64,000 nt of DNA, from positions 55,162 through 119,161 of IMG/VR virus record IMGVR_UViG_3300044946_000175; one strand, 5' to 3'. The translations under genes were made by a program, and so were the position numbers. Below are positions 39,175-63,637 of the stretch, in pieces. The notes below the pieces were generated by a model. That model was not told the origin of the DNA. It was given only the letters and a program-made list of their open reading frames with translations, and ran no database searches. Position 1 is the stretch's first letter. Every line of letters begins with the position of its first letter. The stretch comes from a virus.

Positions 39175-39955
39175 TCCCCACGAACAGAAAATGCTGAACA
39201 TCCTGCGCAAGACCGATTGTTGGTCGGGCATACCTCTCTTGCGTACTGCTTTCAACAAAGGCAAATGGCGGATCTTCTACTGGTCCGCGCGGAGCATTCA
39301 TCGCCTTTTGGATCGACTTGAGAAGCGAGGACTTGCAGCATCGAAGTACGACTTTGTTCCAGTCGCTGGCGTGAAAGTGGCGAAGTTATTCTTTCGCATC
39401 AATGGCAGCGAGAATGAAAAGTGCAGTAATCAACTCAAGGACATCCGTCGCTCCGCCAAGACTCCACCGATAGGGGAGATCGTTCTCCATTGTGGCCACG
39501 TCGTGGGTGAATTTACTTTTTGGAACGTACCGGACGGAATGGATTTCATGTCTCCGGACGGCGAGATGGGCAGCGCCAAATGGATTATGGCGTGCAGGGA
39601 GTGTGACGAAGCGAGCAAGGACGATCCAAACCAATTGCGAGTCAAAGGTGACATAGAATGGAGTGAGAAATACGACGATATGACTAGCGACATCCTCTTG
39701 CAGCAGAAATGCCAGGCGCTCATTGCAGAGGTTCTGGAAAAAGTGCCAGAGGAGTATGAGTCACAACAAATCTACGTCGATCTGGACACCGACAATCCCA
39801 ACATGAAGACTGCTCAAGTGCTGGTGGTCATGGAGGATGGCAAGGGGTTTCTTTTGAAGAAGATCGATACACTGGAATTCGAAGAGACTCCAATTTTGGT
39901 GGAATTTAAAATGGAAGAAGGCAAGATCGTGATTGAGAAAATATCTACTACTTGA
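39161..39955 (+). CDS. multidomain protein with HCGH...CxxC domain
   Basis: central domain paralogous to 46151-46558. Confidence 0.65.
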   Translation: MSRNDPHEQKMLNILRKTDCWSGIPLLRTAFNKGKWRIFYWSARSIHRLLDRLEKRGLAASKYDFVPVAGVKVAKLFFRINGSENEKCSNQLKDIRRSAKTPPIGEIVLHCGHVVGEFTFWNVPDGMDFMSPDGEMGSAKWIMACRECDEASKDDPNQLRVKGDIEWSEKYDDMTSDILLQQKCQALIAEVLEKVPEEYESQQIYVDLDTDNPNMKTAQVLVVMEDGKGFLLKKIDTLEFEETPILVEFKMEEGKIVIEKISTT

Positions 39956-40023
39956 ATAAATCTTTTATTTTTCCGGCGGGAGCCTGGAAGACAAGGCGAT
40001 ATTATTGGATAAGGAGATCCATC

Positions 40024-41124
40024 GTGGCAAACGATACCATAGTCCGTGCTGTTACCATCGCCGCGAGCCGACCGCTTACTGGCGATTGGGCTGACTTCAA
40101 TAAAGCAATGGCAGCATGCTGGAGGTCGTCCACCAACGCGGCCAACTGGTGCATTACGGAGTTGTTCCGTCGCGACATTCCCAACGAGGCCAAGACTCCC
40201 GACGCGGTGAAGATGGGAAAGCAGAGCGACGGGCGATTTTACGCCTACGGCGAAGCCAAGAACCTGCCCTGGTTCTCCGAGTGGAGCGGTCAGAAGCAGT
40301 CGCTTAATATCGTTCTTCAGTATGCGCACAGGGAGTATCTGCGGCGTCGATTCGACGTGATGGTGCGGCACACTCAGTCCCTCTTGACCGTGCGGTATCC
40401 CTATCCGTTTCCGCTGGACGCCGATGTATGGAAATTGAGCTACAAGGCTGGCGACTTTCCCGTGGTTTCGTTCGCGCTGCCGGGACTGGGTAAAGTGGAT
40501 TTGCGCTTGAAGCGTCACGGGGATTTTCGGCGGCAACTGGCCATGCTGAAGCAGATACATGCGGGCACGGCAGCAAAGGGCGAAGCGGCGGTCTACAAGA
40601 ACTCAAAAGGCGATTTGTTAGTTAAGATTGTGGGGAAGTTCCCGCGCGTGGAGCGGTCGAAGGACAATCGAGTTCATGCCTGTGCGATGCACACCGATCC
40701 TGCTGCTTTATTGGTTGCCGAGATCGATGGGAGGCAACCGTGGATTCTGAACTGTGACCACTTTCGTCGTTGGCAGGCACAGCATCGAGACTTTCTACAA
40801 AGGACGCATGAGGATTTGAAGCGAGAGAAGCGAATGGATCGCCGCCAGCGAGAACAACTCAACAAGGTACGGGAGGAGAGATGCCGCAAGCACAACGACA
40901 AGCTGAAGACGGCGATTCATTCTGTTTCGAAGCAGGTCGTTCGCTTCATGGAGAGGAATCAGGTCGCGACTTTGGCATACGATGACGCGAATAAAGAGTT
41001 CATCCCGGATGGTTTCCCGTGGCATATGCTGAAAGAACAACTACGCTACAAGCTGACCGGGATGGGAGTGGAGTTCATCACTACTAACGATATCGAAAGG
41101 AACAAGACAAAGGAAATAGAGTAG
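40024..41124 (+). CDS. compact TnpB/Cas12f-like type V effector, predicted nuclease-dead and C-terminally truncated
   Basis: GTG start after AAGGAG; RuvC-I-like CAMHTDP, Arg-rich bridge helix ending IHSVSKQVV, RuvC-II-like TLAYDD, FPWHMLKEQLRYKL..MGVEF then stop; adjacent CRISPR arrays. Confidence 0.8.
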   Translation: MANDTIVRAVTIAASRPLTGDWADFNKAMAACWRSSTNAANWCITELFRRDIPNEAKTPDAVKMGKQSDGRFYAYGEAKNLPWFSEWSGQKQSLNIVLQYAHREYLRRRFDVMVRHTQSLLTVRYPYPFPLDADVWKLSYKAGDFPVVSFALPGLGKVDLRLKRHGDFRRQLAMLKQIHAGTAAKGEAAVYKNSKGDLLVKIVGKFPRVERSKDNRVHACAMHTDPAALLVAEIDGRQPWILNCDHFRRWQAQHRDFLQRTHEDLKREKRMDRRQREQLNKVREERCRKHNDKLKTAIHSVSKQVVRFMERNQVATLAYDDANKEFIPDGFPWHMLKEQLRYKLTGMGVEFITTNDIERNKTKEIE

Positions 41125-41128
41125 ACCA

Positions 41129-41235
41129 TGTGCTTTTGCCAAGCGCGGCTGCAATGGGCACTATTACCAGTGCGTAATAGGTCGCTCGCAGAACGCCGGA
41201 AACACTGGTCCAGAAGAAGGCGAACAGCCACGGCT
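41129..41235 (+). ncRNA. tracr/omega-like scaffold RNA, copy 1
   Basis: close copy of 42201-42307 with compensatory stem changes; fused to first repeat. Confidence 0.75.
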
Positions 41236-41786
41236 CTGGAGAGACCTTTGGAATCTGAAGGAGCCCGCAAGGGAATCTGAAGTGAAGGTGCAAGCAAGCC
41301 AAAAAACTTACCAATGGGATCTGAAGGTGTAAGCAAGATCTTGTCGTGCATCTTGTATCCGACGGTCGTTTTCCGGAGAGACTTTCGGGATCTGAAGGAT
41401 CGAGCAAGACTAGATTGGGCTTGCAGAGTTCAGATCAGAGGAGCCTTCGGAATCTGAAGGAACTTGCAAGGCTAAAATTTCAGCATTGCAAAATGTGAGA
41501 AAAATCACTCGGAGAGACCTCTGGGATCTAAAGGAACTTGCAAGACCAAACCATCGGCCCGACACCAGGGCAATCTTCCACCGGAGAGACCTCTGGGATC
41601 TAAAGGAACTTGCAAGCTGATACTCCAGAACTTTTAAAACTCTGCGAAGTTCTGGCCGGAGAGACCTTTGGAGTCTGAAGGAACTTGCAAGGTGAGCCGC
41701 CGAGATCCGGAGACATTGGAAGTGCTTGCCGGAAAGACCTTTGGGATCTGAAGGAGCCCGCAAGGGGATCTGAAGGTTCAAGCAAG
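41236..41786 (+). CRISPR. CRISPR array 1 (heterogeneous repeats)
   Basis: full repeats at 41236, 41373, 41435, 41509, 41581, 41656, 41729 plus half repeats at 41272, 41316, 41765; spacers 26-39 nt. Confidence 0.9.
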
Positions 41787-41854
41787 AGTGGCCCCGCTAG
41801 GAATATGCAAGTAAGGTGGTTTTTATCCATGACACCAAAAGGAGAGTTTCAATT

Positions 41855-42094
41855 ATGTCTTCTCGCGAAAGCAAAGTATCAGGCACTCAAGAGGCTGGCC
41901 GCGCATCGGTCCAGACACCGATTGAAGTCGCATCCGGCGGTCTCAATACGTTCCAAGATCATTCGCGCATGTCGAGTGCGTTGATGGTTGAATTGCTCAA
42001 TGGCAATTTGCGGAGCAAGAAAGCCAATACAGCCTGTCGAATCGGAAACTATGGGCTGCGCGCTCTGGAGGGTGCTGCCGAAGAGCGGAACTGA
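41855..42094 (+). CDS. small protein between the two CRISPR arrays
   Basis: 79 aa, AAGGAG RBS. Confidence 0.65.
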   Translation: MSSRESKVSGTQEAGRASVQTPIEVASGGLNTFQDHSRMSSALMVELLNGNLRSKKANTACRIGNYGLRALEGAAEERN

Positions 42095-42200
42095 AACAGG
42101 GGTCTGGCAGTTATTCAGGCCACTTTTTGCGAGTGGTGAAGTGGTGAACAGATCACTGGTAACCGCTCGCGCAATCCTAACAGGAGATACACAGTGACTT

Positions 42201-42307
42201 TGCGCTTTTGCCGAGCGCGGCTGCAATGAGCACACTCATCAACGCATGAGTGGCCGCTCGCAGAACGCCGGAAACACTGGTCCAGAAGAAGGCGAATAGC
42301 CACGGCT
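42201..42307 (+). ncRNA. tracr/omega-like scaffold RNA, copy 2
   Basis: see copy 1; preceded by CAGGAGATACA (family-B promoter variant). Confidence 0.75.
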
Positions 42308-43041
42308 CTGGAGAGACCTTTGGAATCTTGAAGGTGCAAGCAAGGTGTGACATTGAAGATGGTTCCGTTTTTGACTTTGACATCCGGAAAGATCTTTGGG
42401 ATCTAAAGGAACTTGCAAGGCCTCGTCTCGGGGATTGGGTTTACGCTGGTTGGTTCACCGGAAAGACCTTTGGGATCTAAAGGAACTTGCAAGCGATCGT
42501 GCTCGACTCACCTGTCGGACCAAGCTTGCCGGAAAGACCTTTGGGATCTAAAGGAACTTGCAAGCTGCACGGGAATCTGTGACAGCCGCCGGAAGTTTCC
42601 CGGAAAGACCTTTGGGATCTAAAGGAACTTGCAAGGAGTCGTCTCACGTTGAAGGATCGGCACGAGATAAACCGGAAAGACCTTTGGGATCTAAAGGAAC
42701 TTGCAAGACCGAGTAACACCATCAGCGGGAACGGGCCGTCGGGCTCCGGAAAGACCTTTGGGATCTAAAGGAACTTGCAAGTACCAAACGGTTCGATTGA
42801 GGCTTCCACAGTGGACCGGAAAGACCTTTAGGATCTGAAGGAACTTGCAAGCCATCCATGAAGTCTTTGATGCCTTCATCGTCTTTCCGGAAAGACCTTT
42901 GGGATCTAAAGGAACTTGCAAGGTGACAGAGTATCCCGGAGTGAGTGCTCGGAAAGACCTTTTGGATCTAAAGGAACTAGCAAGCTGTAAGGCCCCTCAA
43001 TGAGGACCGAAAATACTTTTGGAGTCTGAGGAATTTGCAAT
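42308..43041 (+). CRISPR. CRISPR array 2, 11 repeats / 10 spacers
   Basis: consensus CCGGAAAGACCTTTGGGATCTAAAGGAACTTGCAAG; spacers 39,38,35,35,36,38,34,35,26,22 nt; degenerate terminal repeat 43007-43041. Confidence 0.97.
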
Positions 43042-43088: not shown

Positions 43089-43874
43089 ATGGCACGTCCG
43101 AAGAAGGGGTTCTCGAAAGCAGGCAAGCGTCTGGGTAGGCCGGTGGGGACAAAGAACAAACATAAGAAGCGGAATATTCCTGTTCCGCCTCCTCCCGATG
43201 CGCCCATCGATCCGAACACGCCTCCAGAAGATCGTCCTCTCTCGCCCACCGAGCGGATGTTCGTGGGTCGCTATCTGGTGAACAACAACGCAACTCGTTC
43301 GTACCAGGAGGTATACCAGTGCAGTTACGGCAACGCGAACAAGGAAGGTCCGTTGATGCTCCGCCGCCCCAATGTGGCCAAGGAGATCCGCTGCGCCACG
43401 GAAGCGGTGATGCAAAAGTTTCGGTTAAACAACGAGGATGTGATCCAGGAACTTATTCGGGTTGCCTTTTCCGATCTGGTCTGCGTGGAGAGTGCGTTTG
43501 GTGATTTCCTGCGCCTGTCGCAAATTCCCACGCAGGAGCGCCGGGCCATTCAGTCGTGTAAATTTCGCACGCGATCTATTTCGAGGAAGAAGGGACCGCC
43601 GATAGTGGAGACCACTATCGAGTATAAGATGCACAAAAAGGTGGACGCTTTGGGTCTGCTTGCGTCTTATCTGGGAATCCGCAAGACCGGTATTCCCGAT
43701 TTTGAAGCGTTCTTGGCTCTGCTGCCGACAGAAGTCGCGCAGCAACTCAAGGACATGATCTCCAAGACAATGAAAGAAAAGACCGAAGCTTCGAAGAATG
43801 GGCATGTTGATGAGTTGCCTTCTACTTCTCCGGTCAAGACGGAGGTGGCCGTTCCCCCTGTCGAAACCCCGTAA
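43089..43874 (+). CDS. terS: terminase small subunit
   Basis: LSPTERMFV..YL...NATRSY...L..PNV..EI...VIQEL.RVAFSD...K.DAL.LLA.YLG. Confidence 0.85.
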   Translation: MARPKKGFSKAGKRLGRPVGTKNKHKKRNIPVPPPPDAPIDPNTPPEDRPLSPTERMFVGRYLVNNNATRSYQEVYQCSYGNANKEGPLMLRRPNVAKEIRCATEAVMQKFRLNNEDVIQELIRVAFSDLVCVESAFGDFLRLSQIPTQERRAIQSCKFRTRSISRKKGPPIVETTIEYKMHKKVDALGLLASYLGIRKTGIPDFEAFLALLPTEVAQQLKDMISKTMKEKTEASKNGHVDELPSTSPVKTEVAVPPVETP

Positions 43875-55144: not shown

Positions 55145-55222
55145 AATTACTCCAATTCGGGGTTAAGGTTTCGGCCATTCGTGGCCCACTCCCGTGAGAG
55201 TAGGGCGCGAGAGGTCGGGGGA

Positions 55223-61936: not shown

Positions 61937-63637
61937 ATGGCCGATCCATTTTCTGCTTACTTTCTCGACTATTACACGCCGCAAGAAATTTCCAAGACGA
62001 TCACTTCTTCTCAGTCCGGTGAAGACCTCAAAGCGAAATACGCCAAGTACCGATATGACTGTCTGGGTTATGTGGTTGACATACTGAAGATCACCCCGAC
62101 CGATCAGCAGGCCACACTTTACAAAAAACTTCCTGGTCGTGTAAAGGTGAACAGTGGTCATAATATTGGAAAAACGAACTTTTGTGCTTCTGTTCTTTCT
62201 TGGTGGTATGATACTCGCGATCCATCTTGGGTGATTACCACGGCGCCCACGGCTAGAGACATCGAGCAACTACTTTGGACTGAGGTGCGTCTTCAACGAG
62301 CGAGAGCCGGATTATTAACGCCATACATCGGACCAAAAGCAGCGGCAATTTTCGACCATGAAGAGCACCAGGCGATGGGATTTACGGCGCGGAGCGGAAA
62401 CAATTTCGTCGGTCGTCACCGACCTCATATGTGCTTTTTGATAGACGAGGCCGATCTGATCGAGTCGATTTACTGGACCACGATCAACACGATGTATCAA
62501 CCAGGTCCCGAGATGGATCACTGCTGGATTGCAATCGGAAATCCCATCACGACGGATTCCCAAAGTTGTCTGGAGGACACTGCTGTCGATTTGAGTGGTA
62601 ATCCTAAATGGCAAGTTTATAATTTGTCTTCCATCGACCATCCTAACATTGCTGCCGCTCTTAAGGGTGAACGTCCGCCGATTCCTGATGCCGTGTCTCT
62701 GGCGCAATTAAATGACTGGGTGAGTGACTGGTGCGATCCTGTCAATGTTGGCGATGACATCATGCCGATGGACTTCGAGTGGTATCCTCCTTGGGCCATA
62801 ATTGATGGTCCCAGGCAATGGTTCCGACCTGGACCGCAGTTTTTGGCTCGTGCTCTTGGTATCCGTTCAACTGAAGGTGTTAATACAATCTTTGGGGCAT
62901 CTGATTGGGAACGCGCCATCAAGCCGAAGTTCAGTCCGCAGTTTTGTTGGGAGAGTCATTGCGGAATCATAATCGGCTGCGACCCGGCAGAATTCGGGGA
63001 TGATCAAACGAGTATTCACGTAAGGACGGGTCCGCTCAGTCTCCATCACGAGGAGCACAACGGTTGGGCGCAGGATCAGACCGCCAAGCGGCTCTGGGAA
63101 TTATCTATCGAGTGGTGTGGTTGGTACAACAGACAGGCTACGATGGATCGCCTCCCGCTCATTCCGGACAAGGTGAAGGTAATTATTGAACTGGACGGTA
63201 TGGGCAGTGGAGTCATGTCTCACTGTGTTGCGCCTCGCGACTGGTCTGGGTTCAAGGCGAGTGAGGCATCTGAAATTTTGGACGTGTCAGGAAAGAAAAT
63301 CTATTACAACAAGCGCGCTGAGATGTGGTTTGAGAACAGAAAGAAGATGCGAAAGGGGATGATCGACTTGTCGCGTATGTCGAAGAGTGTGCAGAACAAA
63401 CTGCGGCTTCAGCTTCTCGCGCCGTCATACAAGGTCGATAGATTTAGCGGAACTCTGCTGGTCGAGCCGAAGGATGACATCAAAGCAAGACTCAAACGTT
63501 CGCCTGACAGTGCGGACGCTATGCTCTGTTCGCACATGGACACCAGTGTTACATACCTACCAACGATAGTCGGGGCCGATCCTGAGCGGGAAAGTGTTGC
63601 AGATTGGCGATATCTCTCGATACCTAAACCGGCCTGA
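61937..63637 (+). CDS. terL: terminase large subunit
   Basis: Walker A SGHNIGKT, Walker B FLIDEA, IGNP, nuclease IGCDPAEFGDD...SPDSADA. Confidence 0.92.
   Translation: MADPFSAYFLDYYTPQEISKTITSSQSGEDLKAKYAKYRYDCLGYVVDILKITPTDQQATLYKKLPGRVKVNSGHNIGKTNFCASVLSWWYDTRDPSWVITTAPTARDIEQLLWTEVRLQRARAGLLTPYIGPKAAAIFDHEEHQAMGFTARSGNNFVGRHRPHMCFLIDEADLIESIYWTTINTMYQPGPEMDHCWIAIGNPITTDSQSCLEDTAVDLSGNPKWQVYNLSSIDHPNIAAALKGERPPIPDAVSLAQLNDWVSDWCDPVNVGDDIMPMDFEWYPPWAIIDGPRQWFRPGPQFLARALGIRSTEGVNTIFGASDWERAIKPKFSPQFCWESHCGIIIGCDPAEFGDDQTSIHVRTGPLSLHHEEHNGWAQDQTAKRLWELSIEWCGWYNRQATMDRLPLIPDKVKVIIELDGMGSGVMSHCVAPRDWSGFKASEASEILDVSGKKIYYNKRAEMWFENRKKMRKGMIDLSRMSKSVQNKLRLQLLAPSYKVDRFSGTLLVEPKDDIKARLKRSPDSADAMLCSHMDTSVTYLPTIVGADPERESVADWRYLSIPKPA

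Follow-up and report, generated by a model that had tools for sequence, protein, structure and literature searches.

We describe here a locus on the genome of a soil phage in which a gene for a truncated Cas12f-like protein, a structured scaffold RNA and two CRISPR arrays stand together. It lies at positions 40,024 to 43,041 of a stretch of 64,000 nucleotides (hereafter the window; positions 55,162 to 119,161 of IMG/VR virus record IMGVR_UViG_3300044946_000175), and coordinates refer to the window unless stated otherwise. The protein, which we call the body protein, has the fold of Cas12f and stops short of the zinc finger and of the last acidic residue of the RuvC site; the structure of the scaffold RNA is conserved, gene and arrays are linked across related loci, and one guide matches a bacterial operon of the ubiquitin-like kind. 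We therefore consider it fairly probable that the locus, judged by sequence and model comparison, encodes a phage-borne, type V-F-derived RNA-guided DNA binder that would block transcription.

The reading frame of the body gene is open from 39952 to 41124 on the plus strand, and the form on record (P0001) comprises 366 aa from a GTG at 40024, as a preliminary description of this DNA had it; AAGGAG lies 6 nt upstream of this codon, and the alignment of relatives begins there. Searches with the body protein gave only a sub-threshold SRAP match in Pfam (E 0.011), only a weak transposase match in PHROGs (E 0.0041), no match in PADLOC and, with phmmer, nothing relevant in the PDB. An AlphaFold (AF2) model, built with 56 relatives as the alignment, reached a mean predicted local distance difference test score (pLDDT) of 94.8, and its best Foldseek match is the Cas12f chain 8dzj_A (E 1.4e-18); nearly all matches listed are Cas12f, TnpB or other Cas12 chains. 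A VIA structure search, which covered 48,161 chains and is independent of Foldseek, aligned 337 residues with the same AsCas12f chain (Z 21.1) and also found nuclease-dead dCas12f (9n9c_A, Z 18.1), Al3Cas12f (Z 17.3) and ISDra2 TnpB (Z 13.5), so that the TnpB/Cas12f architecture recognized earlier from motifs is borne out by the modelled fold. At the sequence level, the family profile matches OsCas12f over WED/REC (E 4.1e-5), and a profile restricted to RuvC finds almost only Cas12f, TnpB and dCas12f entries, with SpCas12f1 as the best (E 0.016).

The family to which the body protein belongs is large and mostly viral. A word-indexed protein search returned 57 members, and an exhaustive search at least 754 representative clusters (50% identity) at E ≤1e-3 and 578 at E ≤1e-10, all of them unnamed. 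Of those proteins in the nearest ESM Atlas cluster for which a taxon is recorded, 78% are viral; among non-viral Atlas clusters, the ones nearest by language-model features are Bacteroidota proteins of 364-365 aa, which we treat as a lead only. The family was not found by tblastn in the GenBank phage collection, nor in one narrow pattern-based scan of 185,579 prokaryote species genomes, a result that does not prove its absence there. Conservation counts are based on 193 members, each 340 aa or longer, aligned with the hidden Markov model (HMM) of the family. An N-terminal CxxC...CxxC ahead of the WED domain occurs in 84 of these (P0021, P0048, P0051, P0057 and others) and is lacking in the window protein.

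The body protein terminates just past a W..L...YK...G helix and strand beta-5. An hhalign comparison of the family with a TnpB that the same phage encodes elsewhere (27 columns, probability 0.4, used for position only) places residues 331-357 on the stretch immediately before the CxxC zinc finger, and none of the 193 members has a C-terminal CxxC pair. The absence of the TNB zinc finger and of the RuvC-III Asp, which the preliminary description had read from the stop after the W..L...L.YK helix, is thus a property of the whole family. The solved nuclease-dead dCas12f is truncated at the same place: residues 3-365 of the 365-aa chain 9n9c align with residues 1-349 of a model of a longer family member (Z 20.5), so that this chain ends where the window protein ends. 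Since the truncation is family-wide, the window copy is not a recent pseudogene of a full-length protein, an alternative that had been envisaged; we rejected it also because short forms recur in five relatives (L002, L003, L004, L015 and L018), because dCas12f 9n9c shares the end point and because the two scaffold copies keep their fold through four compensatory pairs.

We turn next to the remaining RuvC positions. HMMER aligns the family motif YDD with MED of AsCas12f, so that Asp320 occupies the RuvC-II Glu position and Asp replaces Glu, in agreement with the altered RuvC-II noted previously. The change from D to H formerly assigned to RuvC-I is not confirmed by the strand pattern of the model: a conserved TDP (residues 224-226) closes strand beta-1, where TnpB has GVDLG, and we therefore read Asp225 as the RuvC-I residue and the earlier assignment as probably a register slip of two residues. 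Across the 193 members, Asp225, Asp320 and Asp321 are conserved in 133, 156 and 165, compared with 187 for Asp245, 190 for Asp264, 191 for Lys266, 186 for Glu268 and 188 for Arg270. Catalytic positions are hence less constrained than structural motifs, as expected of a dead site, and the protein most likely binds DNA rather than cutting it.

The second line of evidence is a scaffold RNA. A 133-nt stretch directly after the body stop codon (41124-41256) recurs at 42196-42328 with 87% identity, and nhmmer finds this scaffold core exactly twice in the phage genome, as copy 1 (41129-41240, E 5.2e-17) and copy 2 (E 8.9e-24); a 5' domain is found once, at 42125-42198 (E 9.1e-16). The core is present in 13 of 18 related loci, which amount to about 10 independent scaffold-bearing lineages because L007/L008 and L002/L014/L017 are near-duplicates. 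Four of the five loci without it end 0-208 nt past the gene stop: L011 and L016 end within the 5' domain, and L006 and L013 have no downstream sequence at all. L015 is the only long-enough locus with neither scaffold nor array, within 3,970 nt downstream.

Covariation supports a defined structure for this RNA. RNAalifold, run on an alignment of ten loci so diverged that protein identity falls as low as 25%, proposed 28 pairs, of which 21 show compensatory changes; without prompting, it joined the hairpin-1 loop to the final bases of the repeat. Our own structure has eight helices and 42 pairs, this pseudoknot included; 88.9% of cells are paired, compared with 33-46% in slid-partner controls, 24 of the 42 pairs changed on both sides, and none of 500 shuffles scored as high. 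The pseudoknot itself covaries, reading CUGC:GCAG in most loci, UUGC:GCAA in the window and CUUC:GAAG in L007, and so does an anti-repeat helix that encloses hairpin 3 and pairs with the 5' end of the repeat (five of its six pairs). The four compensatory pairs by which the two window copies differ all fall in hairpin 2. In cis, each scaffold continues as a repeat-like unit followed by a first guide and thus resembles a natural single guide RNA (sgRNA). Scans of the window with Rfam (no match at gathering score) and for tRNAs found nothing.

The two arrays, at 41236-41786 and 42308-43041, hold six and ten spacer slots, in keeping with the approximately 16 guides counted previously. Their repeats keep a 5' CCGGA, a hairpin and a 3' GCAAG; among the ten repeats of array 2, six are identical, three differ at one or two positions and the last at about eight. 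Most spacers measure 34-39 nt; the exceptions are a 26-nt slot in array 1 and the two final spacers of array 2, of 26 and 21 nt. A short slot of array 1 (41409-41436) holds an inverted copy of two repeat blocks, which together with the next repeat forms a hairpin (41405-41475, -23.4 kcal/mol, z -2.38) that might act as a local anti-repeat, in processing or as a decoy. The statement that the arrays directly follow the gene stands for the arrays and fails for "directly", since duplicated scaffold RNA, a tail ORF (open reading frame) and a 79-aa gene intervene.

Arrays lie downstream of the gene in 11 of the 18 related loci and are therefore real and recurrent beside homologues; in two further loci (L005 and L012) the sequence extends no further than the scaffold and first repeat. 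A comparison of nine loci and the window revealed no spacer common to any two of them. Two repeats of the same type also stand upstream of the Cas12f-like gene in L011 (42-156), so that twin or both-side arrays recur in the family and are not confined to the window. In L018 (5697-5838) two neighbouring spacers are identical (35/35), which points to repeat-spacer duplication rather than acquisition. A soil contig from sequencing run X2 carries a different spacer after an array-2 repeat (window 42497 onward), a sign that the phage population may be variable in its spacers even though the record is without cas1 and cas2. The lack of these two adaptation genes, reported before for the window, extends to the whole 119,161-bp record, in which profiles for Cas1 (PF01867) and Cas2 (PF09827) found no match; the same earlier claim for cas4, for which no search was made, is left aside.

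One guide, S2.0, is wired directly to the full-length scaffold, and it is also the guide for which we found a candidate target. In the plasmid collection it matches plasmid p1 of Leptolyngbya boryana (E 3e-3) at 34 of 39 positions, the first 15 nt exactly. There, a Multi_ubiq gene (ubiquitin-like, akin to bubA) overlaps with its 3' end the first codon of an E1 gene (DUF6791+ThiF), in an operon that runs Multi_ubiq (E 6.1e-60), DUF6791+ThiF and then DUF6527; the other strand of S2.0 encodes VKVKNGTIFNVT, compared with VKVKQGTVFNVT on the plasmid, ending in the E1 start MSH. According to Chambers and colleagues (PMC11601596), a Multi_ubiq-E1-DUF6527 set constitutes a type II Bub operon, for which phage immunity was proposed from context. 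Contigs of two phage-holding soil runs (X2 and X3, one each) match the S2.0 stretch alone, with foreign flanks, and the flank of the X3 contig resembles the Leptolyngbya flank. We regard the Bub operon as one credible target and not as proof of purpose. The preliminary description had proposed that the system silences or rewires genes of the host or of competing mobile elements and had suggested spacer searches: a single guide matching a bacterial Bub operon fits the silencing of host genes, with no second spacer match beside it and none in the phage collection.

From these features we infer how guide loading, pairing in trans, DNA binding, repression and an anti-defence purpose would be connected. 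The protein would load a guide RNA of the same build as the sgRNA of Cas12f or the omega-RNA of TnpB, with scaffold, repeat and then guide, in which the 3' end of the repeat (GCAAG) would pair with the hairpin-1 loop as a pseudoknot. Each of the two scaffold copies would be hard-wired to one guide, and CRISPR RNAs (crRNAs) from the arrays could pair with a scaffold in trans, because the array repeats keep the three scaffold-contacting elements, namely the CCGGA that pairs with the anti-repeat, the hairpin and GCAAG. The complex would then bind matching DNA and, given the incomplete RuvC site, block transcription instead of cutting. At least one guide would be aimed at a host-kind type II Bub operon, a predicted anti-phage system, and others may be aimed at host or rival-element DNA.

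Several observations weigh against this interpretation. In the 56 closest relatives, the subclade of the window protein, Asp225, Asp320 and Asp321 vary little or not at all, so that some metal-dependent activity, for example processing of pre-crRNA, may be retained. Only the cis repeat (CUGGA) pairs perfectly with the scaffold anti-repeat (UCCAG); the array repeats (CCGGA) have a mismatch at one of 5-6 pairs, and the single-sequence folding energies of the two scaffold copies are unremarkable (z -1.33 and -1.14), as is that of the repeat (z -0.48). S2.0 is the sole spacer matched, with a borderline E-value, and the other spacers have no match in the plasmid collection. Searches of the same collection with the arrays of L009 and L018 gave only matches at E 0.01-0.05, which we treated as chance and in view of which the E-value of S2.0 by itself is weak; the L003 array gave none. 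An exact 24-mer of S2.0 occurs nowhere in the 185,579 species genomes, the stretch 41125-43041, which covers everything between the start of scaffold copy 1 and the last unit of array 2, has no match among the 50,697 records of the phage collection, and spacers match the phage's own 119-kb genome only over 14-16 nt, at chance level. Among the listed sequencing runs that contain the locus there is no RNA run.

Two small coding elements accompany the body gene. Longer relatives carry, in place of the missing nuclease parts, a tail of 40-60 aa with the motif W..A..AG.R..R.GSHPAVS and no invariant acid. The tail is fused in frame to the body in eight loci (L001, L005, L007, L009, L010, L011, L012 and L016) and is a separate ORF in another frame in L004, where it begins with ATG, and in the L002 group, where it begins with GTG. 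In both (L004:1190-1354 and L002:1715-1882) it overlaps the end of the body gene in the +1 frame, with about 55 codons open and SHPAVS intact. Because such start codons head the tail ORF in L004, L002 and the window, we prefer a separate start over a programmed +1 frameshift for these predicted tails. In the model of a long form (P0007, pLDDT 92.5) the tail folds as two helices; the model matches AsCas12f 7wju_A with Z 22.7, and as the alignment reaches residue 418 of 422, the tail probably takes the place of the RuvC helix that follows the zinc finger. In the tail frame of 11 loci, the SHPAVS region shows 2.83 distinct bases at third codon positions, compared with 2.17 and 2.08 at first and second positions, which indicates that the frame is under selection. 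In the window, homology of scaffold copy 1 begins within the last codons of the body gene and the 5' domain is missing, from which we infer that the scaffold core and its array were duplicated and that the duplicate, placed immediately behind strand beta-5, severed the tail, which would have survived as its own ORF.

The second element, orfX, overlaps the tail ORF and has homologues after the body gene in ten loci (L001, L002, L004, L005, L007, L009, L010, L011, L012 and L016). Its N-terminal part is variable and Gly-rich, and its conserved C-terminal half, probably helical by sequence, starts near the tail stop codon, aligns with relatives and ends ..LRALE. It has no Pfam, PHROG or PADLOC family and no usable ESM Atlas lead, and a co-fold prediction of body and orfX scored 0.00, which counts neither for nor against an association.

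We next consider what else such a locus might do. Inter-element competition, in which a non-cutting binder would mainly silence or exclude rival phages, plasmids and integrative elements, as Cas12m or proposed viral mini-arrays do, would suit the spacer sets unique to each locus, the array turnover suggested by the soil contig with its different spacer, and the plasmid-borne nature of the Bub-like match; arrays of phage Cas12r, as set out in its preprint (bioRxiv 10.64898/2026.04.20.719267), target integrative elements. However, a spacer match was found neither in the phage collection nor in G001 and G002, related phage records that share only scaffold and orfX homology, and the single good match is a cellular defence-type operon and not a phage or mobility gene, so that we think this unlikely as the main function. 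Distinctly less probable to us is that the protein is still interference-competent, either as a nuclease acting through Asp225 and Asp320/321 with assistance from the tail, from orfX or from a factor of the host, or as a recruiter of a host nuclease. The near-invariance of these residues in the closest relatives and the two conserved small products beside the gene would be explained in this way, and active rearranged RuvC sites are discussed for TnpB in PMC10691335; yet across the wider family the catalytic positions are less constrained than the structural motifs, all 193 members lack the zinc finger, the tail has no invariant acid to offer and the solved dCas12f shares the end point.

A very improbable alternative, in our view, is RNA-guided activation or recruitment in the manner of dCas12f with sigmaE, with a polymerase factor brought by orfX or by the SHPAVS tail and genes switched on. 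By architecture dCas12f is the closest functional relative, and it activates with sigmaE (PMC13472631); the locus offers possible partners in a small conserved gene and a conserved tail peptide, and the Bacteroidota lead of 364-365 aa would also fit. Nevertheless, the scanned flanking ORFs include no sigma or helix-turn-helix (HTH) gene, the neighbours being without a family or terS, orfX has no recognizable family, and S2.0 matches a gene junction inside an operon rather than a site upstream of a gene. We thus retain RNA-guided binding and blocking of transcription as the preferred reading. A bolder form of it, which we advance tentatively and hold to be doubtful, is that many soil phages use a programmable, nuclease-free Cas12f derivative as an anti-defence weapon, whose hard-wired sgRNA and exchangeable guides would, early in infection, silence immune operons of the host, type II Bub among them, and perhaps rivals; body, SHPAVS tail and orfX would then form a new effector architecture, and the locus would record a step of repeat-tracrRNA (trans-activating CRISPR RNA) fusion with arrays kept.

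The features of the locus are collected in the table below.

Table. Features of the Cas12f-like locus and their positions in the window.
Feature	Position	Strand	Remark
AGGCGATA motif, candidate phage promoter element	39994..40001	+	23 nt upstream of GTG start
Body gene, 366 aa, Cas12f fold (WED-REC-RuvC), ends after RuvC strand beta-5	40024..41124	+	
Scaffold copy 1, core only, without 5' domain, into first repeat-like unit of array 1	41124..41271	+	
Array 1, seven degenerate 36-nt repeats, three 3' half-repeats, six spacer slots	41236..41786	+	
Tail ORF, 51 aa (W..A..AG.R..R.(G/K)SHPAVS), separate from body	41829..41984	+	between array 1 and scaffold copy 2
orfX, conserved 79-aa protein, start uncertain	41855..42094	+	overlaps tail ORF in -1 frame
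Terminator-like hairpin and T run	42101..42121	+	directly after orfX stop codon
Scaffold copy 2, full length: 5' domain 42125-42198, core, first repeat-like unit	42125..42344	+	
Guide S2.0, wired directly to full scaffold	42345..42383	+	34/39 to Leptolyngbya boryana plasmid p1
Array 2 after guide S2.0, ten 36-nt repeats (last two degenerate), nine spacers	42384..43041	+	

For the terminator-like hairpin its position is the sole argument, since four such sites were found in the region and 4.0 are expected.

The surroundings of the locus are those of a phage. The parent record of 119,161 bp is classed as linear and estimated to be 85% complete, and nearly all coding in the window is on the plus strand. 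The locus is followed by terS (43089-43874; phrog_2606, E 3.8e-19) and, further on, terL (61937-63637); hallmark genes also include two helicases, DnaB, a DNA polymerase and a UvsX-like recombinase, with replication genes upstream of the Cas12f-like locus, and the phage origin claimed earlier is well founded. No support was found for Planctomycetota as the host. The relatives of TerL are at most 26% identical and spread across many hosts, so that TerL allows no inference of the host. The octamer AGGCGATA, a copy of which precedes the body gene, occurs ten times in the window, compared with 1.32 expected by chance and with no count as high in 100 shuffles; eight copies are on the plus (coding) strand, and the sites span 8744-55043 (for example 19668, 24779, 27160, 31041 and 39994). 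It may be a phage-specific promoter element, and of the promoter variant described ahead of the gene the over-represented motif is upheld, its role as a promoter staying that of a candidate. Related versions precede both scaffold copies (about 41108-41123 and 42181-42195). The TnpB encoded by the same phage is a separate, apparently intact protein of 364 aa (genome 26205-27299, minus strand; L033:306-1400), 27.9 kb before the start of the window, with GVDLG, ALEDL, a CxxC..CxxC zinc finger and NADLNAA in this order; an intact TnpB and a truncated Cas12f-like gene thus coexist in one phage.

If our interpretation is correct, RNA-guided silencing would be a phage counter-defence strategy, and a widespread one, and not solely an immune or regulatory tool of bacteria. 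Recurrent splitting of the tail and its overlap with orfX would allow dual coding and gene fission to be tested on an RNA-guided effector, and a predicted DNA binder of 366 aa with a scaffold of approximately 150-220 nt would be of practical interest as a very small programmable repressor. The locus also appears to preserve a proposed evolutionary intermediate, in which RuvC-III is lost and a tracrRNA-repeat fusion serves as a natural sgRNA while conventional arrays are kept; a path on which Cas12f loses RuvC-III and a half-repeat then becomes joined to the tracrRNA has been proposed by Altae-Tran and colleagues (PMC10691335).

Among known systems, the closest in fold are the Cas12f nucleases AsCas12f (8dzj/7wju), OsCas12f (9nzq) and SpCas12f1 (9i8y), with which VIA aligns approximately 337-339 residues at Z 21-23 and to which the weak, specific sequence signal described above also leads; like the window locus, they have an adjacent array and a scaffold in which an anti-repeat helix and a pseudoknot adjoin the guide. 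In contrast to them, the phage-borne protein described here has no TNB zinc finger, no RuvC-III Asp and an Asp for the RuvC-II Glu, so that the D-E-D triad is incomplete, its scaffold forms one unit in cis with a first repeat and guide, and cas1 and cas2 are lacking from the record. The truncated, nuclease-dead dCas12f (Hoffmann et al., Nature 2026, PMC13472631; 9n9c) shares the fold, the truncation point and a scaffold-plus-guide RNA, and its sequence relation is marginal (HMMER, E 1.6 over RuvC). The window locus differs from it in having no sigmaE (rpoE) or HTH partner among the scanned flanking ORFs, terS being the gene downstream, and in its mostly viral family, two arrays with about 16 spacers, the additional orfX and the SHPAVS tail.

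Other RNA-guided proteins that bind without cutting stand further away. TldR proteins (Wiegand et al., 2024, as presented in PMC13622181) are likewise minimal RuvC-defective proteins of the TnpB fold with a scaffold-plus-guide RNA, and one of their clades is prophage-encoded and represses a host gene; together with sigmaE-associated dCas12f they are described as RNA-guided transcription factors (PMC13472631, PMC13622181). However, TldRs derive from TnpB and use single omega-RNA-like guides, whereas the fold described here is closest to Cas12f and comes with arrays of unique spacers. Cas12m (V-M) and Cas12k (V-K), according to PMC10442227 and PMC10691335, are also type V DNA binders that do not cut, and match our model with Z 10.9-14.7; they are larger (about 600 aa or more) and still have the C-terminal RuvC/TNB region, and Cas12k works with Tn7 proteins. 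Phage Cas12j/CasPhi, CasLambda and Cas12r share phage-carried arrays without adaptation genes, but are active nucleases of 560-800 aa, and Z to CasPhi and CasLambda is only 8-12. Cas12r, according to its preprint, has 564 aa, needs D238 for interference and needs no tracrRNA; comparison with the respective papers led us to reject both Cas12r and MvCas12m as members of the same family.

A published precedent is a CRISPR-associated cluster of C-terminally truncated dCas12f proteins with a guide RNA predicted upstream of the array, as outlined in PMC13472631. Since such proteins are already published there, and the path through loss of RuvC-III in PMC10691335, the undescribed type V subgroup suggested at first is doubtful as stated, and we take the window locus as a phage-borne variant of the known dCas12f kind. 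What it adds to that kind is a scaffold RNA with a pseudoknot, orfX, a detachable tail, arrays beside a fused sgRNA, and a defence operon as a candidate target.

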